From a virus, in UHGV virus genome UHGV-1278612: DNA of 10,744 bases; one strand, written 5' to 3'. Shown in pieces: positions 1 to 10,744 of the stretch (the first letter of the stretch is position 1; each line of letters opens with the position of its first letter). Position numbers and translations under genes: made by a program. The notes beneath the pieces were generated by a model. That model was not told the DNA's origin. It worked only from the letters and a program-made list of their open reading frames with translations, and ran no database searches.

Positions 1-40
1 GAGCGCCACGGACAGTATGTCGCAGGTTAAAAGTGCAGCC
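1..40 (+). repeat. Left arm of 40-bp exact inverted repeat (reverse complement of 205-244); carries a sense-strand copy of an H segment
   Basis: Window 1-40 is the exact reverse complement of 205-244, checked base by base. Positions 41-44 continue the match with one mismatch. Frame 2 of the plus strand (2-40) reads SATDSMSQVKSAA, the same peptide encoded on the minus strand at 206-244. Confidence 0.9.
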
Positions 41-2169
41 CCGCCAATGGCGCTGCCGATACTCCCGACAATCCCCACCATTGCCTGCTTAAGCAGAATT
101 TCTGTCATCATGGACAGCACGGATCGGGTGAAGCTGCGCCAGTTTTGTTCACTGCCGGTCAGCATCGCCGCCATATTCTGTGCAATACCATCAAAGGTCT
201 GCGTGGCTGCACTTTTAACCTGCGACATACTGTCCGTGGCGCTCTCTTCCCACTCACTCCAGCCTGACTTGAGGCCTGCCATCCAGCTCCCGCGAAGCTG
301 GTCTTCAGCTGCCCAGGTCTTTTTCTGCTCTGACATGACGTTATTCAGCGCCAGCGGATTATCGCCATACTGTTCCTTCAGACGCTGTTCCGTGGCGTCC
401 CGCGCTGCCTGCCGGTCAGTCAGCCCCCGGTTTTTCGCATCAATGGCTGCCCGTTTTGCCCGTTGTTGCTGTGCGAATTTATCCGCCTGCTGCGCCAGCG
501 CATTCAGGTGCTCCTGATACGTGACCTTATCGCCAAGTGCAGCCAGCTGGCGTTTGTACTCCAGCGTCTCGTCTTTATGCGCCAGCAGGGATTTCTCCTG
601 TGCGGACAGCTGGCGACGTTGTGCCGCCTCCTCCAGTACCGCGAACTGACTTTCTGCCTTCCACAAATCCCGGCGCTGCTGGCTGATTTTCTCATTCGCT
701 CCGGCATGCTTCTCCAGTGTCCGGAGTTCTGCCTGAAGCGTCAGCAGGGCAGCATGAGCACTGTCTTCCTGACGATCGCCCGCAGACACCTTCACGCCGG
801 ACTGTTTCGGCTTTTTCAGCGTCGCTTCATAATCCTTTTTCGCCGCCGCCATCAGCGTGTTGTAATCTGCCTGCAGGATTTTCCCGTCTTTCAGTGCCTT
901 GTTCAGTTCTTCCTGACGGGCGGTATATTTCTCCAGCGGCGTCTGCAGCCGTTCGTAAGCCTTCTGCGCCTCTTCGGTATATTTCAGCCGTGACGCTTCG
1001 GTATCGCTCTGCTGCTGCGCATTTTTGTCCTGTTGACTCTGCTGTTCAGCCTTCTTTCGGGCGGCTTCAAGCGCAAGACGGGCCTTTTCACGATCATCCC
1101 AGTAACGCGCCCGCGCTTCATCGTTAACAAAATAATCATCCTTGCGCAGATTCCAGATGTCGTCCGCTTTCTTAAACGCAGCCTCTGCCTTAATCAGCAT
1201 CTCCTGAGCGGTATCAGGACGACCAATATCCAGCACCGCATCCCACATGGATTTGAATGCCCGTGCTGTCCTGTCTGCCCAGGTTTCCAGCGTGCCCATG
1301 TTCTCTTTCAGGCGTCGGGTCTGGTCATCAAACCCTTTCGTTGCGGCCTCGTTCGCCGCCTGCAATGCCCCGGCTTCATCGCCGGAACGCTGCAACTGAG
1401 CAACATACGCAATCTGCTCCGCCGTCACGTTATGGAACTGGCGCGCCATCGCCGTCAGCCCCGACGTCGGGTCAGTGGTCAGCTTCCCGAAGGCTTCAGC
1501 GACCTTGTCCACCTCCACACCGGATGCAGAGGAGAAACGCGCCACACTCTGGCTGATGGACGCAATCTGAGCCTCACCGCTTACCCCCGCCTTAACCAGT
1601 GCACTGAGTGACTCGCTGGTCTGGTTAAACGTCAGCCCTGCAGCCTGCCCGGCTCTGGACAGGACCAGCATACGATCTGCCGTCAGTCCCGCCTGATTAC
1701 CGGAAAGGACCAGCGTTTTGTTGAAATCGGACAGGGTTGAGTTACCCTGATACCAGGCATACGCCAGCGCACCGGTCGCCACCGCCAGCGAGGTGGCCCC
1801 GACCATCGGCAGGGTGATCGCACCGGCAAGCCCCCGGAACATGGGGATCATCCCGCCGAAGGAGTCCTTAACCTGACCACCCTGTTGCAGCAGGATCAGC
1901 CACGGGCTTTGCCCGCCTGCAAGCTGCGTGGCCACGTCGGTGAACTGTGCAGGCAGCATACGCATGGCGGCTTTATACTGCCCGACGGAAATCCCCGCTT
2001 TCTGTGCAGCCAGCGCCTGTCGGCTCAGCGACTGTTCAACGACTGCCGCTGTTTTTTTCGCATCACTTTCCGTACCGGAAAAATGACGCCTGACTCTGGC
2101 CATCTGCTCGTCAAATCTGGCCGCATCCAGACTTAAATCAACGACCAGATCGCCTACCGGTTCAGCCAT
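41..2169 (-). CDS. H: Tail tape measure protein gpH, first ~709 codons; 3' end disrupted at the 40/41 junction
   Basis: ATG at 2169-2167 overlaps the T stop (2164-2162). The translation begins MAEPVGDLVVDLSLDAARFDEQMA, as in lambda H. No complete minus-strand ORF is listed in this frame, so the frame stays open to the window edge. Beyond position 41 it reads into the inverted-repeat copy, not the expected H continuation. Confidence 0.85.
205..244 (-). repeat. Right arm of 40-bp inverted repeat, lying inside the minus-strand H coding sequence
   Basis: Reverse complement of 1-40. The arms are separated by a 164-bp spacer (41-204). Confidence 0.9.
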
Positions 2170-2596
2170 ACCGGACTCCTCCTGCGATCCCTTCTGATAC
2201 TGTCATCAGCATTACGTCATCCTCCGTCATGCCCGCCATATCCGGGGAAGCGGGGATAACTTCATTTCCGTCCGGGTCAAAGCGGACGCCTCCGGTAAGC
2301 CCTGCCGCTTTCTGCATCAGCACATCATCTTCAGGCTCTTCGTCATCCTCACGCCGGTTCAGCAAACTGAAATCCAGCGGATGCATATCCGGATCGCTGA
2401 AAAACAGGCTGAGCACAGTGTACGTCAGCCCGGAAAAGTGCATATCCAGCAGAACATCATGAAAATAATGGGTACTGTAAAAGCGGTGCCAGTCGGCATA
2501 CTCCGTGGATGACATCCCGGCAAGCATGGCGCGCCAGTCAGGTCGCCCCATCTCTCGCGCCAGTTTCAGGGCAAAACTCAGCTCACCGTCGAACAC
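2162..2596 (-). CDS. T: T segment of the tail assembly chaperone, expressed only as the G-T fusion via -1 frameshift
   Basis: ORF 2162-2596 (translation VFDGELSFALKLAREMGRPDW...) sits in the -1 frame relative to G and overlaps the G 3' end. It has no independent ATG or RBS and begins at the slippery heptamer. Confidence 0.85.
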   Translation of the reverse strand: MFDGELSFALKLAREMGRPDWRAMLAGMSSTEYADWHRFYSTHYFHDVLLDMHFSGLTYTVLSLFFSDPDMHPLDFSLLNRREDDEEPEDDVLMQKAAGLTGGVRFDPDGNEVIPASPDMAGMTEDDVMLMTVSEGIAGGVRYG

Positions 2597-3000
2597 TTTC
2601 CCGCAGAAACAGGCTCTGCAGGCCCGGCGTCCTCTGTCTGGTCAGGGGCATCATTCACCACAAACTCATACATTCCGGACAGCCGGTACACCACGTTTTC
2701 AGCATGAGAAATTGCCTCTGTAGGCCAGGTGGTAAGCACTTCCTGCTCAATCTGTTTAACGGCTTCATTCATGGACGGCATCTGCGTCTTCTTCGGATGG
2801 TTATGCCACAGGGACATCGCCACCACAAAAGCGCCGGTTCTGATGGCGTCTTCCACAGTAAACTTCCGGTTGCTGTCTGACTCCGCCTGTTCTGCCTGCC
2901 GTTTCATCAGGGCGAGATGCTCAATACGCTGTAGGGCTGACAGTTCAGAAAGCGTGACGGTCACGCCGTTATGTTCAAATGATTCGGTTTTCAGGAACAT
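2578..3000 (-). CDS. G: Tail assembly chaperone gpG
   Basis: 140-aa ORF MFLKTESFEHNGVTVTLSELSALQRIEHLALMKRQAEQAE...AGKCSTVS, ATG at 3000-2998. Matches lambda gpG in length and sequence; position between V and T. Confidence 0.92.
   Translation of the reverse strand: MFLKTESFEHNGVTVTLSELSALQRIEHLALMKRQAEQAESDSNRKFTVEDAIRTGAFVVAMSLWHNHPKKTQMPSMNEAVKQIEQEVLTTWPTEAISHAENVVYRLSGMYEFVVNDAPDQTEDAGPAEPVSAGKCSTVS
2596..2602 (-). other. Programmed -1 ribosomal frameshift slippery heptamer GGGAAAG (G to G-T)
   Basis: Plus-strand ctttccc at 2596-2602 is GGGAAAG on the coding strand. In the G frame it reads GCG GGA AAG (A G K), 8 codons before the G stop, and the T frame opens there. Confidence 0.85.
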
Positions 3001-3015
3001 CGCTGACTCTCCGGA

Positions 3016-3756
3016 TTAACTGGCGGTGACGGTGATTTCTGCAACCGCAGCAAACTCACCATTACCGGATACGACCGGAATGTTGACCTTGCCTGCAGCA
3101 ACGCCGTTCACGGTGATGGTCATACCACTGACCGACACGGTGGCTTTTGTTTTATCCGCAGACACCGCACGGAAGCTCTTGTCGGTTGCGCCTTCCGGCT
3201 GGAATGCCACGGTCAGCGTGGTGCTCTGCCCTTTCACTACGGAAGCACTGGCTGGCGTTACCGTCATGCCGGTGGCCGCCGTCACCGTGCTGCGATCTTC
3301 TGCCATCGACGGGCGTCCCACATTGGTGACCTTCACCGTGCGGGTAATCACTTCCTTCGCCGTCACCGCCTTACCGATACTGCTGACCCAGCCACGGAAC
3401 ACATCGACCGTGCCGTTCGGGAAGCGGATTTTATAGGCACGGGTATCACCTTCATTAAACCACGCCAGCAGCGCCTGCTGCCCCTGCTCTCCGGGCATCC
3501 ACGCCAGCGTGAAGCTGGTATCTCCGGCTGACTTCTGCCCCTGTCCGGTCGCGGTCCAGTCCGCATCTTCATCATCGAGATAACTGTCGTCATAGGACTC
3601 AGCGGTCAGCTCGCCGGGCGTCAGGTCTTTAACTTTAGCCAGACGCGACCAGTCAACGTCTGAAAGCGGGTTCGCATAAGGGTCACCGTTCCCCTTATAA
3701 ACCCACAGTGTGGTCCCGGCACCTTTCACCGGCATTGTTGGATTTGGTACAGGCAT
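3016..3756 (-). CDS. V: Major tail tube protein gpV
   Basis: ORF 3016-3786 trimmed to the internal ATG at 3756-3754, giving [22 protein letters not shown]... (246 aa). This start lies 7 nt after the U stop and matches the lambda gpV N-terminus. Confidence 0.9.
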
Positions 3757-3763
3757 AGCGTCC

Positions 3764-4159
3764 TCACATTTCATAGGTAATGACATAAGTCAGATCGGCT
3801 GAACTCCACAGGCCCGCATCATCGTCGCGCCGGTAGTCATAGCCACTGGCCACCATACTGGTGATCAAATCTGACAGTGCCGGGATATCGCTCATCACCG
3901 GATAAATCCGGGACTCCATCCACGAATCCAGCTCTGAATCCGGCACCTGAGCAGGCAGGAAAACTTCAATATGCAGCTCCGCCTGCCAGGTATCGCTGTC
4001 CAGCTCTTCGCCCGTGTATTCAGCGCCGGTGAGATAAACGGCAATTGCCGGAAAATCCGCCTCATCAAAAACAGCGGGGCGACCATCAAAAAGCGTCGCC
4101 CCGGTGTCATGCTTCTCCAGTGCATCCAGTACGGCTGCACGGAGTTCAGTATGTTTCAT
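3764..4159 (-). CDS. U: Tail tube terminator protein gpU
   Basis: 131-aa [31 protein letters not shown]... Its ATG at 4159-4157 overlaps the Z stop TGA (4158-4156) in an ATGA arrangement. Confidence 0.92.
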
Positions 4160-4734
4160 CGCTTTATTACCATTCTCAGTTGATGCTGCAGCGCATAGCC
4201 CAGCTCTTTCGGAAGACGTTCACGCCGTATCCGTTCAATATTCTGTTTAAACGCCGTGGTAAGCGGCACCGCCATCGGGATTTTCACCACATCAATGGGG
4301 TAACGGTTTTTCCCGGCCACACGCTGCATGACATGCCACCGCCCATTTTTCAGTTGCTGAATAAACGCGCCGGGAATACGACGGTTACCCACCACAAGCA
4401 CGCTGCCGCCACCTTTCAGGGATGAACGCTGCCCCTTTTTACGACGCCTGCGGCGGGACAGGACAACCCGCGCATTACCCAGCTTGATTACGGGCAAATC
4501 CCCCCGGTTAACTTTGATTCTGGCCTGCGGATTTTTGACCGTGGCCCTTTTCAGCCTGGCCCTTTCCTTTACCAGTTTCCGGCGTACCTTTGTCTCACGG
4601 GCAACCTGTGACGCAGACTGCGATATCACGGATGAAGCAACGCGGTTAATGGCCATTGCGGCGGCACCAGGCACCGCCGTTTTGCTGATACGGCTGAGGT
4701 TTTCAACGGCCTGCTCAAGACCTTTTATGGCCAT
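4156..4734 (-). CDS. Z: Tail completion protein gpZ
   Basis: 192-aa ORF MAIKGLEQAVENLSRISKTAVPGAAAMAINRVASS..., ATG at 4734-4732. Same length as lambda gpZ. Confidence 0.92.
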   Translation of the reverse strand: MAIKGLEQAVENLSRISKTAVPGAAAMAINRVASSVISQSASQVARETKVRRKLVKERARLKRATVKNPQARIKVNRGDLPVIKLGNARVVLSRRRRRKKGQRSSLKGGGSVLVVGNRRIPGAFIQQLKNGRWHVMQRVAGKNRYPIDVVKIPMAVPLTTAFKQNIERIRRERLPKELGYALQHQLRMVIKR

Positions 4735-4745
4735 ACATCCCCCTT

Positions 4746-5099
4746 TCAGCGGCGACGGTTAACGGCAGGCGGTACGCCCCGCCCAAGCCAGAGATGACAG
4801 CTTCCACCATCATCCGGCGAAACCCGGTCTATCCAGAAGTTTTCCTCACCGATGGTCAGCGTGTCTCCACGCCGCAGCTGCCGCACATCATCAGTCCGGA
4901 CAAACAGGGACGGGCTGGAGCCTTCAACGCGCACGCCCTGTCCGGCATAGCTGATATTTTCAGGGTCATCAAAAACACCACGTATTACTGCGCCGGACTG
5001 CTCACCGGATGTCATGGTGGCTGACGTTCCCATGTACCCGCGTATCGTTTCATCGGCGCGGACAATGGCAGCATCGAACAGGTTATCGAAATCAGCCAC
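4746..5099 (-). CDS. FII: Head-tail joining protein gpFII
   Basis: 117-aa ORF MADFDNLFDAAIVRADETIRGYMGTSATMTSGEQ...VPPAVNRRR. The start codon is GTG (reverse complement of 5097-5099), 11 nt after the FI stop. Confidence 0.9.
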   Translation of the reverse strand: MADFDNLFDAAIVRADETIRGYMGTSATMTSGEQSGAVIRGVFDDPENISYAGQGVRVEGSSPSLFVRTDDVRQLRRGDTLTIGEENFWIDRVSPDDGGSCHLWLGRGVPPAVNRRR

Positions 5100-5110
5100 A
5101 GCGCCTCCCG

Positions 5111-5506
5111 TTATTGCATTCTGGCCAGGCCGCGCTCTGTCATTTCGGCTGCCACACCGGCAGAGACACGAAACGCCGTTCCCGGCAGCACAAATGCCAC
5201 AGGTTCATCCCGCGTGGCGTGAAGTGCATCGGTATGCAGCGTCACCAGTGCCACAACCGTGACCAGAACAGCCGTATCAGTCACGGTATCCGTCTGTGCT
5301 GATACCACCTCATTTTCATGTCCGGTCAGCGCATTTTCCGGGCTGACAGACGTGTCCTGACCGGCTCCGTCATCCTTGTCATCAAGCTCCTCTTCCAGCT
5401 CTGCCACACGGAGCGCCAGTTCTTCTTTCGTCCCCGTCAGGCTGACATCACGGTTCAGTTGCTCACCCAGCGACCGGAGACGGGCAATCAGTTCATCTTT
5501 CGTCAT
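5111..5506 (-). CDS. FI: DNA packaging / head completion protein gpFI
   Basis: ORF 5111-5545 trimmed to the ATG at 5506-5504, which is preceded by GGAGGAG (reverse complement of 5511-5517). Product MTKDELIARLRSLGEQLNRDVSLTGTKEEL...AAEMTERGLARMQ, 131 aa. Confidence 0.88.
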   Translation of the reverse strand: MTKDELIARLRSLGEQLNRDVSLTGTKEELALRVAELEEELDDKDDGAGQDTSVSPENALTGHENEVVSAQTDTVTDTAVLVTVVALVTLHTDALHATRDEPVAFVLPGTAFRVSAGVAAEMTERGLARMQ

Positions 5507-5527
5507 GGACTCCTCCACAGAGAGAAA

Positions 5528-5545
5528 ATGGCCCCGAAGGGCCAT
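5528..5545 (-). terminator. Intercistronic stem-loop between E and FI: 7-bp perfect stem with UUCG tetraloop, then a U/C-rich tract (possible attenuator or RNA-stability element)
   Basis: Coding strand reads TAA-tc-AUGGCCC-UUCG-GGGCCAU-uuucucucu-guggaggagucc-AUG. The perfect palindrome starts 2 nt after the E stop; the SD and FI start follow. Confidence 0.4.
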
Positions 5546-5547
5546 GA

Positions 5548-6573
5548 TTACGCCAGTTGAACGGACACGAACTCATCAGGATCAGCCAGCAGCATCAGCG
5601 GTGCTGACTGAATCATGGTGAACTCACGCGCCGGATCGCCGCTGGTCACCCAGTTTTTCGGGTAGCGGGCAGAAGCGTTAATACCTTCGCGCTGTGCGTC
5701 CGCATCCTGAATGCAGCCATAGGTGCGCAGACCGCGAGCCTGAGTGTTCCCCAGCACCATCGTGTTGTCCGGCAGAAAGTTCTTTTTGACGCCGTTTTCC
5801 ACGTACTGTCCGGAATACACGACGATGGCCACATCGCCATACATCCCCTTATAGGACACCGCTTTGCCCAGGTCTTTCACCGCTGTCTCCAGCTCGGAAT
5901 GAGAGCCGCGACGGGTATCCAGCTTCTCCCTGACGGCTTTGAAGGAACGGAACAGCGCCCAGCCTTTCGGATCAAAAACGATAATATTCACCACACCGCT
6001 GGCGTTCAGCGCGTAGGCTTCGATATCGTCGGTCGGGTCATACGTGGACTTGTCGCGCTTGCTCCACTCCGTGCTGCCGGACTGCGTGATGTTATTCGCT
6101 TCACTGCGACCCATATCCACCTCAACCGGATCGAAGGCTTCACCGGTCATGGTGTATTTGCCCTTAAGCACGGCAGAAACGGCCTGCATCTCTTCGACCT
6201 GAGCAATGGCCAGCTCTTCGTCTCGCATGTTCTGCATGATGATGCGACGGCGGCGGTAAGCCGGGTCCGCCAGATTCTTCGGATCTTCATCCGGCAGGCG
6301 ACGCAGGGTCATCTGCGGATTCACCTCATGCTTGGGCTTGACATATCCCGGTGTAAATTCAGAGGTGGAGCCGCCACGGGAGCGGATAACCTCACCGGAA
6401 ACAATCGGCGAAACGTACAGCGCCATGTTTACCAGTCCCGGAATTTGTGAGAGATAGACTTTCTCCGTGGTGAAGGGATAGCTCTCACGGAAAAAGAGAC
6501 GCAGAAACAGCGGATCAAACTTAAATTTCTGCTCATTTGCCGCCAGCAGTTGGGCGGTTGTGTACATCGACAT
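5548..6573 (-). CDS. E: Major capsid protein gpE
   Basis: 341-aa ORF MSMYTTAQLLAANEQKFKFDPLFLRLFFRESYPFTTEKVYLSQIPGLVNMALYVSP...DPDEFVSVQLA. Matches lambda gpE in length and sequence; ATG at 6573-6571. Confidence 0.95.
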   Translation of the reverse strand: MSMYTTAQLLAANEQKFKFDPLFLRLFFRESYPFTTEKVYLSQIPGLVNMALYVSPIVSGEVIRSRGGSTSEFTPGYVKPKHEVNPQMTLRRLPDEDPKNLADPAYRRRRIIMQNMRDEELAIAQVEEMQAVSAVLKGKYTMTGEAFDPVEVDMGRSEANNITQSGSTEWSKRDKSTYDPTDDIEAYALNASGVVNIIVFDPKGWALFRSFKAVREKLDTRRGSHSELETAVKDLGKAVSYKGMYGDVAIVVYSGQYVENGVKKNFLPDNTMVLGNTQARGLRTYGCIQDADAQREGINASARYPKNWVTSGDPAREFTMIQSAPLMLLADPDEFVSVQLA

Positions 6574-6583
6574 AAAAAATCCC

Positions 6584-6607
6584 GTAAAAAAAGCCGCACA
6601 TGCGGCC
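6584..6607 (-). terminator. Intercistronic hairpin plus U7 tract between D and E (terminator-like; possible partial attenuator or processing/stability element)
   Basis: Coding strand reads ...AAAG-GCCGC-AUGU-GCGGC-UUUUUUU-acgggauuuuuu-AUG(E). A GC-rich 5-6 bp stem is followed directly by seven U (plus-strand A-run 6586-6592). Confidence 0.4.
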
Positions 6608-6627
6608 TTTAGTGATGAAGGGTCAGG

Positions 6628-6960
6628 TTAAACGATGCTGATTGCCGTTCCGGCAAACGCGGTCCGTTTTTTCGTCTCGTCGCTGGCAGCCTCCGGCCAG
6701 AGCACATCCTCATAACGGAACGTGCCGGACTTGTAGAACGTCAGCGTGTTGCTGGTCTGGTCAGCAGCAACCGCAAGAATGCCAACGGCAGCACCGTCGG
6801 TGGTGCCATCCCACGCAACCAGCTTACGGGTGGAGGTGTCCAGCATCAGCGGGGTCATTGCAGGCGCTTTCGCACTCAATCCGCCGGGCGCGGTTGCGGT
6901 ATGAGCCGGGTCACTGTTGCCCAGCGGCTGGTAATGGGTAAAGGTTTCTTTGCTCGTCAT
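6628..6960 (-). CDS. D: Head decoration protein gpD
   Basis: ORF 6628-6966 trimmed to the ATG at 6960-6958, which is preceded by GGGA. Product [43 protein letters not shown]...FAGTAISIV, 110 aa. Confidence 0.93.
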
Positions 6961-6969
6961 AAACATCCC

Positions 6970-7575
6970 TTACACTGGTGTGTTCAGCAAATCGTTAACG
7001 GCATCAGATGCCGGGTTACCTGCAGCCAGCGGTGCCGGTGCCCCCTGCATCAGACGATCCAGCGCAGTGTCACTGCGCGCCTGTGCACTCTGTGGTGCTG
7101 CGGCCAGAATGCGGCGGGCCGTTTCCACGGTCATACCGGGGGTTTCGGCCAGCACGCGGGCCTGTTCTTCGCGTCCGTGAGCCTCCTCACAGTTGAGGAT
7201 CCCCATAATGCGGCTGTTTTCTGCCGCAACCGCAGCGGTGATCTGCGCGTTCACGTCCGGCTGCGCCGCGCTGGCGTTTTCGCCCTCCGTCGCTGGCACC
7301 ACGTCAGTAACGTCAGCCTGCGAAGCAGTGGCTGAAACAGTTGTTGATTGAGTCTCTTTGGTCATTCGCCCTCCTGAGAGACGGGATTTACGTGCATCCA
7401 GTGCATCACGCATAACGGTGATCGCATCGGTGCTGTTGACAAGTTCATCAGCCAGTCCGGCATCAATGGCCTCCTGACCGCTGTACACTGCAGCCTCGGT
7501 ATCCAGCACAGCCTGCACGGACAGGCCGATATATGCCGACACCTTCTGCGCAAACATCTGGCGGGTTGCATCCAT
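6970..7575 (-). CDS. Nu3: Scaffolding protein gpNu3, nested in frame within the 3' part of C
   Basis: In-frame ATG at 7575-7573 with GGGAGA about 14 nt upstream on the coding strand. Product MDATRQMFAQKVSAYIGLSVQ..., sharing the C stop. Confidence 0.75.
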   Translation of the reverse strand: MDATRQMFAQKVSAYIGLSVQAVLDTEAAVYSGQEAIDAGLADELVNSTDAITVMRDALDARKSRLSGGRMTKETQSTTVSATASQADVTDVVPATEGENASAAQPDVNAQITAAVAAENSRIMGILNCEEAHGREEQARVLAETPGMTVETARRILAAAPQSAQARSDTALDRLMQGAPAPLAAGNPASDAVNDLLNTPV

Positions 7576-8289
7576 CCGGGACTGCAGTGTCTCCCGGACG
7601 TCATCCGGAAGATGGCTGTAGGGGTTGCCATCCACCTTATGGCTGCCGCTGTAAATCAGCGTGATTTCCACGCCCTGTTTCTCCAGCGCAGCACCGTAAT
7701 TACTGTGAGCCATCATGACGCCGATGGAGCCTGTCCGGGCGGTCTGCGTGACCAGACGCCGGGAGGCGGCGCTGGCAAGCAGCTGCCCTGCACTGCAGTT
7801 CATGTCATTGGCCAGCGCCCATACCGGCTTTATGTCACGCACACGGGCGATGATGTCAGCGCAGTCAAATGCCCCTGCCACCATCCCGCCTGGCGTATCC
7901 ATATCGAGCAGAATGCCGTCCACCATCGGGTCGCTGGCAGCCTGTTGCAGACGGGCGATAATGCCGTTGTAACCGGTCATCCCCGAATACGGCTGCAGCG
8001 CTCGCGTCCGGCTGACCAGCGTACCGGACACCGGCAGCACGGCGATGCCGTTCATGACCTGATAATTGCGGGCCTGTCGTGGTCCGTCATCATCACCGGA
8101 TAACGCCAGCGCCGCGGGTGCCTCTCCGGCAGTCAGGCTGTCGCCGGACACCGCATCCGTCAGGCGACTGATCCCAAGCTGGCCTGCAAGCGCACAAAAG
8201 AAAACCCGCGCATAGGCGGGTTCAAGCATCAGCGGCTCATTAAAAGCCATGCTGGCAATATGCGGGAGATTACGCAGCTCTGCTGTCAC
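6970..8289 (-). CDS. C: Head maturation protease / scaffold gpC (ClpP/SppA-like serine protease)
   Basis: ORF 6970-8424 trimmed to the GTG at 8289-8287, giving VTAELRNLPHIASMAFNEPLMLEPAYARVFF...AVNDLLNTPV (439 codons). The start lies inside the 3' end of B, a 20-nt overlap. Confidence 0.88.
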   Translation of the reverse strand: MTAELRNLPHIASMAFNEPLMLEPAYARVFFCALAGQLGISRLTDAVSGDSLTAGEAPAALALSGDDDGPRQARNYQVMNGIAVLPVSGTLVSRTRALQPYSGMTGYNGIIARLQQAASDPMVDGILLDMDTPGGMVAGAFDCADIIARVRDIKPVWALANDMNCSAGQLLASAASRRLVTQTARTGSIGVMMAHSNYGAALEKQGVEITLIYSGSHKVDGNPYSHLPDDVRETLQSRMDATRQMFAQKVSAYIGLSVQAVLDTEAAVYSGQEAIDAGLADELVNSTDAITVMRDALDARKSRLSGGRMTKETQSTTVSATASQADVTDVVPATEGENASAAQPDVNAQITAAVAAENSRIMGILNCEEAHGREEQARVLAETPGMTVETARRILAAAPQSAQARSDTALDRLMQGAPAPLAAGNPASDAVNDLLNTPV

Positions 8290-9034
8290 TCTTCTCCTCC
8301 TCTGTTGATTGTCGCAGCCCGGATTCAAATGCCGCAGCCGCCCAGGCGGGCGGTTTAAGACCGGCTGCACGGCGCTCCATCGTTTCACGGACCTGCTGGG
8401 CAAAAATTTCCTGATAGTCGTCACCGCGTTTTGCGCACTCTTTCTCGTAGGTACTCAGTCCGGCTTCTATCAGCATCACCGCTTCCTGTACTTCTTTCAG
8501 ACCATCGATGGCCATACGACCGGAGCCTATCCAGTCGCAGTTCCCCCAGGCACTGCGGGCTTCCTGAAAACTGAAGCGCGCTTTTGAAGGTAACGTCACC
8601 ACGCGGCGGGCGATGGCCTCTTCCAGCCAGCACAGAAACATCTGGCTCGCCTGACGGGATGCGACGAATTTTCGCCGCCCCATAAAGTACGCCCACGACT
8701 CGTTCGCACTGGCCCGTGCCGTGGAGTAGCTCATCTGGGCGTAATTCCGGGAAAGCTGCTCATACGAGACACCCAGCCCGGCAGCGATATACCGCAGCAG
8801 TGACTGCTCAAACACGGAGTAGCCGTTATCCGTGTCCTGAGCCGTCTGCAGGTTCAGTGAGTCCCCCGGCATCAGGTGCGGCACTTTTGCGCCTCCCAGA
8901 CGGACCGGTGCTGCGGCGTAATACGCGGCAATTTCACCAATCCAGCCGGTCAGCTTGTCCCGCTGCTCCTGACTGTTCGCGCCCAGAATAAAATCCATCG
9001 CTGACTGCGTATCCAGCTCACTCTCAATGGTGGC
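8270..9034 (-). pseudogene. B: Portal protein gpB, 3' fragment (about codons 280-533); no native start, fused to antisense A sequence
   Basis: ORF 8270-9058 reads MFRLRGMLA followed by TIESELDTQSAMDFILGANSQEQRDKLTGWIGEIAAYYAAAPVRLGG...EEEKSDSRAA. The first 9 residues are antisense of the A fragment; the rest is the B C-terminus. The B N-terminal half is absent from this strand. Confidence 0.85.
8915..9034 (-). repeat. 120-bp inverted duplicate of 10498-10617 (B codons ~280-319)
   Basis: Reverse complement of 8915-9034 equals plus-strand 10498-10617; both ends checked base by base. Both copies encode TIESELDTQSAMDFILGANSQEQRDKLTGWIGEIAAYYA. Confidence 0.88.
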
Positions 9035-9664
<630 letters not shown>

Positions 9665-10135
9665 AAACGCCCACCATTCCCACCCTTCTGGGGCCGGACG
9701 GCATGACATCGCTGCGCGAATATGCCGGTTATCACGGCGGTGGCAGCGGATTTGGAGGGCAGTTGCGGTCGTGGAACCCACCGGGTGAAAGTGTGGATGC
9801 AGCCCTGTTGCCCAACTTTACCCGTGGCAATGCCCGCGCAGACGATCTGGTACGCAATAACGGCTATGCCGCCAACGCCATCCAGCTGCATCAGGATCAT
9901 ATCGTCGGGTCTTTTTTCCGGCTCAGTCATCGCCCAAGCTGGCGCTATCTGGGCATCGGGGAGGAAGAAGCCCGTGCCTTTTCCCGCGAGGTTGAAGCGG
10001 CATGGAAAGAGTTTGCCGAGGATGACTGCTGCTGCATTGACGTTGAGCGAAAACGCACGTTTACCATGATGATTCGGGAAGGTGTGGCCATGCACGCCTT
10101 TAACGGTGAACTGTTCGTTCAGGCCACCTGGGATA

Positions 10136-10262
10136 CCAGTCCGTCGCGGCTTTTCCGGACACAGTTCCGGATGGTCAGCCCGAAGCGCATCAGCAACCCG
10201 AACAATACCGGTGACAGCCGGAACTGCCGTGCCGGTGTGCAGATTAATGACAGCGGTGCGGC
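10136..10262 (+). repeat. Direct repeat copy 1 (source copy within B, codons ~159-201)
   Basis: 10136-10262 is identical to 10618-10744 at a 482-bp offset, checked at both ends. Confidence 0.88.
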
Positions 10263-10497
10263 GCTGGGATATTACGTCAGCGAGGACGGGTATCCTGGCT
10301 GGATGCCGCAGAAATGGACATGGATACCCCGTGAATTACCCGGCGGGCGCGCCTCGTTCATTCACGTTTTTGAACCCGTGGAGGACGGGCAGACCCGCGG
10401 TGCAAATGTGTTTTACAGCGTGATGGAGCAGATGAAGATGCTCGACACGCTGCAGAACACGCAGCTGCAGAGCGCCATTGTGAAGGCAATGTATGCC

Positions 10498-10617
10498 GCC
10501 ACCATTGAGAGTGAGCTGGATACGCAGTCAGCGATGGATTTTATTCTGGGCGCGAACAGTCAGGAGCAGCGGGACAAGCTGACCGGCTGGATTGGTGAAA
10601 TTGCCGCGTATTACGCC
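10498..10617 (+). repeat. 120-bp segment of B duplicated in inverted orientation at 8915-9034
   Basis: See feature 8915-9034. The plus-strand copy is flanked by correct B sequence on its 5' side only. Confidence 0.88.
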
Positions 10618-10744
10618 CCAGTCCGTCGCGGCTTTTCCGGACACAGTTCCGGATGGTCAGCCCGAAGCGCATCAGCAACCCGAACAATACCGGTGACAGC
10701 CGGAACTGCCGTGCCGGTGTGCAGATTAATGACAGCGGTGCGGC
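10618..10744 (+). repeat. Direct repeat copy 2, at least 127 bp, running off the window end
   Basis: ccagtccgtcgcggcttttccggacacag...gacagcggtgcggc repeats 10136-10262 exactly and begins right after tattacgcc (B codon 319). Confidence 0.88.

Follow-up and report, generated by a model that had tools for sequence, protein, structure and literature searches.

A fold-back junction in the tape measure gene of a lambda-like phage contig most likely represents a chimeric tip at a contig end

The window analysed here, the whole 10,744-nt stretch of virus genome UHGV-1278612, begins with a fold-back junction (J1) in tape measure gene H. At the level of sequence, the inverted repeat at J1 is real and far from random. 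Biologically, it is most likely no feature of the phage and represents a chimeric fold-back tip at the end of a short-read contig. J1 and two further unnatural junctions in the 10.7-kb window (J2 and J3) probably derive from in vitro chimeric reads, formed by multiple displacement amplification (MDA) or library snap-back and retained at contig ends; both their in vitro formation and their low read support are inferred from the sequence. The window is most likely made up for the greater part of an ordinary lambda-like Escherichia coli prophage or induced phage, spanning from around codon 500 of terminase A to codon 711 of H. The evidence as a whole suggests that the prophage is intact and of a very common lambda-like type, and that chimeric reads extended and joined its contig.

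The left arm of J1 (positions 1–40), which carries H codons 643–655 in sense on the plus strand, was the exact reverse complement of positions 205–244, the minus-strand source arm (natural H codons 642–655) that appears to have served as the template for 1–40. The 164-nt spacer, or loop, between the exact 40-nt arms (positions 41–204, minus strand) is ordinary H, codons about 656–710, and was colinear with H of phages 21, 434, and HK630 and of E. coli prophages. When one mismatch was allowed, the inverted match grew to 44 nt (1–44 versus 201–244). By simple arithmetic, about (10744^2/2)/4^40, or ~5e-17, exact inverted repeats of 40 nt are expected by chance in 10.7 kb. Folding of positions 1–244 as single-stranded DNA gave a 40-bp stem with an energy of −76.4 kcal/mol as compared to −36.2 ± 3.8 kcal/mol for shuffled sequences (z = −10.5). 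The plus-strand translation of positions 2–40 was SATDSMSQVKSAA, corresponding to H residues 643–655. An earlier note on this DNA had described an exact 40-bp inverted repeat with a 164-bp spacer, a fold-back junction inside a lambda-type tape measure gene, and a plus-strand sense copy in 1–40 of the H codons 642–655 found at 205–244. The repeat was recovered exactly, the gene was correctly named, and the codon arithmetic holds.

The same note had also placed the exit from the natural H frame at 40/41. H does run into an inverted copy of codons 642–655, but natural homology extends further, down to position 36 (codon 711). When aligned with phage 21 and E. coli MRSN346647, the window reads ...AAAAGTGCAGCCCCGCC where natural H goes on as ...CCACCAACAGCCCCGCC. 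The motif CAGCC (36–40) is common to natural H and the inverted copy, and over positions 36–44 the two sources concur at 8 of 9 positions; this region of microhomology was delimited by alignment and by BLAST start points at 33–37. Position 40 is A in the prophage of E. coli GmF052 and C in 96 of 124 natural copies on IMG/VR contigs. Since position 40 varies, the microhomology at J1 is 5 nt long; with A in the parent, it would be 4 nt and one mismatch. The C at position 40, a mismatch to GmF052 exactly at the junction, was also considered as proof that this base came from the arm; the matter is not decidable, C being the commoner natural allele. The fold-back arm is the only non-natural sequence at the left end.

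H occupies the minus strand, with its natural codons 1–711 of 853 at positions 36–2169, colinear with H of the lambda group. The ORF starts at 2169, has no stop down to position 1, and runs off the window. Both Pfam domains of the window H were intact, namely TMP_2 (54–256) and Tape_meas_lam_C (627–701). The last 142 natural codons (712–853) were absent, and 12 codons of antisense fold-back sequence stood in their place; the window H thus falls short of the full length of 853 aa, its natural sequence ending at codon 711. In the nearest prophage (GmF052, 99.98% identical), the full H is intact with 853 aa, and the sequence past the J1 point is normal H. The truncation of H in the window is most likely attributable to the contig end and not to the phage.

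Apart from the junctions, the window closely resembled natural prophages. Positions 36–9034 and 9029–10617 matched an intact prophage in E. coli GmF052 at 99.9–100% identity, with 2 mismatches over 8,999 bp and another 2 over 1,593 bp; in either case, one of the two fell on a junction base. In the stretch 9029–10621, the mismatches were at 9250 and at 10618, the first base past J3, and a single base difference was found in the stretch 2162–9034. The best-matching genomes covered 36–9034 in one piece with 99.98–100% identity and then ended. Each E. coli genome carries several lambdoid prophages (median 2–3 matching places). Positions 2162–9034 carry ordinary lambda-type morphogenesis genes on the minus strand (T, G, V, U, Z, FII, FI, E, D, and C, as well as portal B at 8270–9034, of which the 254 C-terminal codons are present). 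The C-terminus of terminase A (9035–9461), W (9458–9664), and portal B codons 1–319 (from 9661 to 10617) follow on the plus strand, in the orientation opposite to the H-through-B block. A 140-aa variant ORF in this region is the natural A C-terminus, which is present in hundreds of genomes. Qin-like remnants carry a natural inversion of the A-W-B block and begin with the same A C-terminal ORF. We considered position 9035 as a natural repeat boundary of the kind seen in these remnants and rejected it, A being continuous through that point in GmF052 and other intact prophages.

When positions were converted to natural coordinates (n = 0 at window position 9035), the window read from left to right ascends from n = 10253 to 10292 and reaches J1, falls from n = 10456 to 1463 and reaches J2, then rises from n = 0 to 1582, jumps at J3, and ends with n = 1101 to 1227. 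All natural DNA of the window falls into one 10.46-kb interval (n = 0 to 10461), the two extremes of which are the two fold-backs. This arrangement fits priming from free 3' ends.

J2 (9034|9035) is the second fold-back and joins portal B on the minus strand to the C-terminus of terminase A on the plus strand, connecting segments 1,463 bp apart at a perfect 6-nt microhomology, GGTGGC (9029–9034). It creates a 120-nt exact inverted repeat comprising a left copy at 8915–9034 (minus strand, portal codons about 279–318) and its reverse complement at 10498–10617 (plus strand). At J3 (10617|10618), which shows no microhomology, the sequence jumps back by 482 bp in direct orientation. The plus strand then continues as an exact 127-nt direct copy (10618–10744) of positions 10136–10262, so that the contig ends in a closed loop of 482 bp; the two halves of J3 are 486 bp apart in real genomes. 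Inspection by eye for restriction sites at both natural ends showed that TGGCCA overlaps J2 and that nothing matching is present at J1. The overlap at J2 was treated as a coincidence. In simulated random fold-back joints in this prophage, microhomologies of at least 5 nt and at least 6 nt occurred in only 0.6% and 0.2% of joints, respectively. Since such microhomology is rare in random joints, J1 and J2 appear to have been made by annealing and priming and not by blunt pasting.

A genuine inverted duplication would be expected to be heritable and hence to recur among relatives, and collections of related sequences were searched for the junctions. Megablast of window positions 1–2600 against 50,697 phage records returned 147 matching records, and the best 20 of these (phage 21, 434, HK630, DE3, and others) all began at query positions 34–36. 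Among 5,426 complete E. coli genomes (3,736 matching records), the matches listed began at 33–37. A 130-nt query across J1 found the junction spanned in none of 3,699 matching records from the same 5,426 genomes, and an exact 46-mer over J1 had zero matches in the genome, viral, and metagenome contig collections. As a positive control, the adjacent natural 45-mer was found in at least 120 viral contigs, with natural H upstream in all 124 occurrences. J2 was likewise spanned by none of 3,257 matching records from the 5,426 genomes, exact J2 k-mers had zero matches in the genome, metagenome, and viral contig collections, and the exact J3 k-mer had zero matches in viral contigs. Exact look-up of five proteins encoded by the window, namely the chimeric A C-terminal ORF (144 aa), the chimeric B C-terminal ORF in two start variants (262 and 256 aa), the cut H (723 aa), and the cut B fusion (361 aa), found none of them on record. 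Overall, none of J1, J2, and J3 was found in the 5,426 complete E. coli genomes, the 50,697 phage records, and the three contig collections, and the expectation of heritability was not borne out by any related genome, phage record, or contig collection. The earlier proposal that a real phage carries an altered, defective tape measure is not supported by these results, given the intact H of the nearest prophage and the absence of J1–J3 elsewhere.

The repeat content of the window bears the signature of an assembler. SPAdes uses k-mers from 21 at the smallest to 127 at the largest. In a k-mer count over the window, the terminal 127-mer was the only canonical 127-mer to occur more than once, and no 128-mer did so; the remaining repeats of the window (120 and 40 nt) were all shorter than 127 nt. 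The window is thus most likely a single path of a k = 127 de Bruijn graph of the SPAdes type, which closes onto a vertex already visited. The right edge of the window is a contig end because of the exact 127-nt k-mer closure, and this closure together with the odd length of 10,744 nt indicates that the window is most likely a whole contig. The left window edge may likewise be a contig boundary, as judged by the odd window length and the 40-nt tip. Because the closure is of lollipop form, onto an internal position, it gives no sign of a circular genome.

The length of the left arm is also informative. A well-covered fold-back in a k = 127 graph would be extended until a 127-mer merges with the reverse strand, giving an arm of 127 nt. 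Since a supported arm should reach 127 nt, the 40-nt arm would be a dead-end tip at which the reads stop. The earlier note had envisaged a larger inverted duplication extending to the left of the window; with an arm of 40 nt as opposed to the at least 127 nt expected in a k = 127 contig, this extension is not supported, and the short arm argues against a large mirror-image duplication on the left. The window also held no natural 127-mer bridging portal across 8910–9034 and 10498–10617. These bridging 127-mers being missing, the natural path must be absent or weaker than the chimeric paths in this data set. Such a missing natural path needs low coverage or skewed amplification, and it fits a clonal real rearrangement equally well.

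Based on these results, J1 may have been formed in vitro as described below. The H-sense 3' end (...GGCTG-3') at n = 10461 would anneal to CAGCC at n = 10288–10292 on a strand of the same polarity, either a displaced sister strand or that of the molecule itself after snap-back (164-nt loop). Extension of the 3' end, copying H backwards, would then yield exactly positions 1–35. The inverted chimera may have arisen during MDA or during the fragmentation and end repair of library preparation. The 1–40 arm would be a short overhang left by a single chimeric read or a few of them, and the assembler would have retained this chimeric tip as a contig end where no natural path competed in the graph. 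The same process could have led to the J2 fold-back, which has the same geometry (GGTGGC, 1,463-nt gap), and to the direct jump at J3. The lack of microhomology at J3 counts against a chimeric-read origin. Microhomology-mediated fold-backs also form in vivo, and this counts against an in vitro origin.

The alternative that survives best, although an unlikely one, is a genuine in vivo fold-back in H, produced by a microhomology-mediated template switch or by hairpin priming from a broken end, as part of a clonal three-junction rearrangement in a prophage or replicating phage. Known routes to fold-backs in vivo are quasipalindrome template switching at the replication fork and the repair of hairpin-capped breaks. 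Microhomologies of 5 and 6 nt at both fold-backs would be expected from such events, and fold-backs at both ends of the 10.46-kb segment are what a linear fragment processed at both ends would show. The missing natural bridging 127-mers also imply that the junction molecules were no small minority of the assembled data. However, J1 is absent from all of the complete genomes, phage records, and contig collections searched, and its arm stops at 40 nt, short of the at least 127 nt expected. In addition, the right end is a 482-bp dead-end loop without an exit, which is impossible for a replicon, and three independent joints would have to have accumulated in 10.7 kb of sequence that is otherwise conserved at 99.9–100%. 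A specific form of this alternative, which we regard as quite improbable, takes J1–J3 as real and clonal: a 10.46-kb linear prophage piece, released for example by nuclease or defence-system cleavage of induced phage DNA, would have had both 3' ends snapped back on 5–6 nt and extended in the cell, giving a hairpin-ended, partly palindromic molecule.

It is very improbable that separate contigs were pasted without spacers into a pseudomolecule or scaffold, in which case 1–40 would be the tail of an adjoining contig that carries a different copy of H. The presence of several lambdoid prophages per genome does fragment assemblies in these genes, and 36–9034 and 9035–10617 overlap by 120 nt in the orientation expected for graph neighbours. 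Under blunt pasting, however, the joint probability of two of the three joints falling on 5–6-nt microhomologies is about 1e-5. The repeat content is moreover bounded exactly by k = 127, as expected of one path through a graph, and all segments come from one prophage at 99.9–100% identity.

A purely algorithmic de Bruijn artefact formed without chimeric reads, an unsafe unitig that crosses a repeat onto the reverse strand at a coverage gap, is scarcely probable: such unitigs have been proven for error-free low-coverage reads and seen in real assemblers, but they need a shared repeat at least as long as the k-mer (bioRxiv 10.1101/2022.01.20.477068), and the joints here share 5–6 nt or none. Homologous recombination between two oppositely oriented lambdoid prophages in one chromosome, in favour of which are the multiple H copies per genome and the natural A-W-B inversion of Qin-like remnants, is hardly credible, since it leaves no novel junction and is contradicted by the anatomy of J1, which changes abruptly at a 5-nt match, doubles back on the same gene 164 bp away, and is missing from all 3,699 E. 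coli records with a match.

Chimeric reads at contig ends thus remain the preferred reading of J1–J3, and its value lies mainly in the quality control of contig ends. Annotated at face value, the window would pass for a prophage in which the tape measure is truncated and non-functional, the terminase-portal block inverted, and the portal duplicated. In large scans, such ends could be flagged automatically by comparing the repeat length with the assembler k and by asking whether any relative shares the junction. If J1–J3 were real, they would document in vivo fold-back synthesis, primed by microhomology, at either end of a fragment of phage DNA, which would be of moderate interest for the biology of phage DNA damage and defence.

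Fold-back and quasipalindrome events in vivo resemble J1 in that adjacent sequence is inverted at a short microhomology, with spacers of tens to thousands of bp. They differ in being heritable, replicable, and fully supported by reads, whereas the window has a 40-nt dead end and a closed loop and no counterpart in another genome. Terminal overlaps of 127 bp are a documented artefact of SPAdes contigs (PMC5923482; PMC8104045). The last 127 nt of the window likewise repeat an earlier 127-mer exactly, with no repeated 128-mer, but the repeat closes onto an internal site 482 bp upstream and not onto the opposite contig end.

In MDA, inversion with an intervening deletion accounts for 85% of the chimeras, and the segments joined mostly lie within 10 kb of each other; complementarity of at least 2 bp accompanies 93.5% of the proximal inverted chimeras, its range over all junctions is 2–21 nt, and direct joins are rarer (Lasken & Stockwell 2007, PMC1855051). 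J1 and J2 are both inverted and each joins sequences of the same locus, over gaps of 164 bp and 1,463 bp that are both below 10 kb. The complementarity of 5 nt at J1 (CAGCC) and 6 nt at J2 (GGTGGC) lies within the range of 2–21 nt; J3 has none and would correspond to an occasional direct join. J1 is, in addition, not common to independent genomes of the same element. Unlike the published MDA chimeras, the junctions here are known from an assembled contig and not from single reads, and an MDA history of the sample is not indicated.

Chimeric reads with cis inverted repeats are also documented from library preparation, where the PDSM model puts such artefact reads down to the pairing of partially single-stranded fragments followed by fill-in (Chen et al. 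2024, PMC10908179). Those reads came from human capture libraries and were nucleated by natural inverted repeats, whereas only a 5-nt match (8/9) is available at J1. As in the left end of the window, a PDSM read opens as the reverse complement of nearby sequence and then proceeds in the normal orientation (PMC10908179). Finally, the window H differs from lambda-type gpH in the loss of the natural C-terminal 142 codons, its ORF running off the window edge, but codons 1–711 are colinear with H of phages 21, 434, and HK630 and of E. coli prophages at 97–100% DNA identity.

The last 127 nt of the window (10618-10744) proved to be an exact direct copy of 10136-10262, which lies 482 bp upstream. It was the only repeated 127-mer in the window, and no 128-mer was repeated. 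A terminal copy of 127 nt together with the absence of any repeated 128-mer is the characteristic mark of a contig from a k=127 de Bruijn graph that ends by closing a loop.

A second fold-back junction was located at 9034|9035, where the portal gene B on the minus strand is joined to the C-terminus of the terminase gene A on the plus strand, with a 6-nt microhomology (GGTGGC, within 9029-9035) at the junction. This fold-back creates an exact 120-nt inverted repeat (8915-9034 versus 10498-10617) with a spacer of 1,463 bp. The 9034|9035 junction was found in none of the complete E. coli genomes searched.

When the window was compared with its nearest relative, the prophage of E. coli GmF052, only four mismatches were observed, at positions 40, 3610, 9250, and 10618. 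Two of the four, 40 and 10618, fall exactly on junction bases, and 3610 and 9250 are simple SNPs. Natural copies vary at position 40: among the matches listed, 124 IMG/VR copies, 96 have C there and 27 have A.

An ORF of 166 amino acids (17-517, plus strand) starts within the fold-back arm at window 1-40 and runs antisense to the tape measure gene H. This ORF arises only because the arm joins an antisense frame that happens to be open, and a real gene here is very improbable.

Split gene calls in the lambdoid head-tail region were seen in many public E. coli assemblies. In the comparison loci L003, L005, and L008-L011, the called genes for A, portal, capsid, and tape measure were broken into several pieces, which indicates decayed prophages or error-rich assemblies. 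Because head-tail genes are split in so many E. coli assemblies, hundreds of blocks in the collection list the natural 140-aa C-terminal ORF of A as a protein in its own right.

In the prophage of E. coli MRSN346647 (L002, 16516-18656), a 1,143-bp gene for a TIR domain-containing protein adjoins a truncated major capsid gene, and it is flanked by FI and a second capsid/decoration/SSB/primase module. Such an arrangement points to an inserted segment or to a mosaic of prophage and satellite, with a possible defence gene.

Qin-like cryptic prophages in several E. coli assemblies carried, on one strand, a block consisting of the A C-terminus (140 aa), W, portal, and a 115-aa C fragment. In L004 and L006 (about 9400-14540) the A N-terminus (494 aa) and Nu1 come after the block, on the opposite strand; in L012 the block is present only in part. 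Neighbours of the block include ydfZ, ydfI/ydfJ-type genes, and a pin-type resolvase. The arrangement resembles a natural inversion that is widespread and affects the head genes of a remnant prophage.
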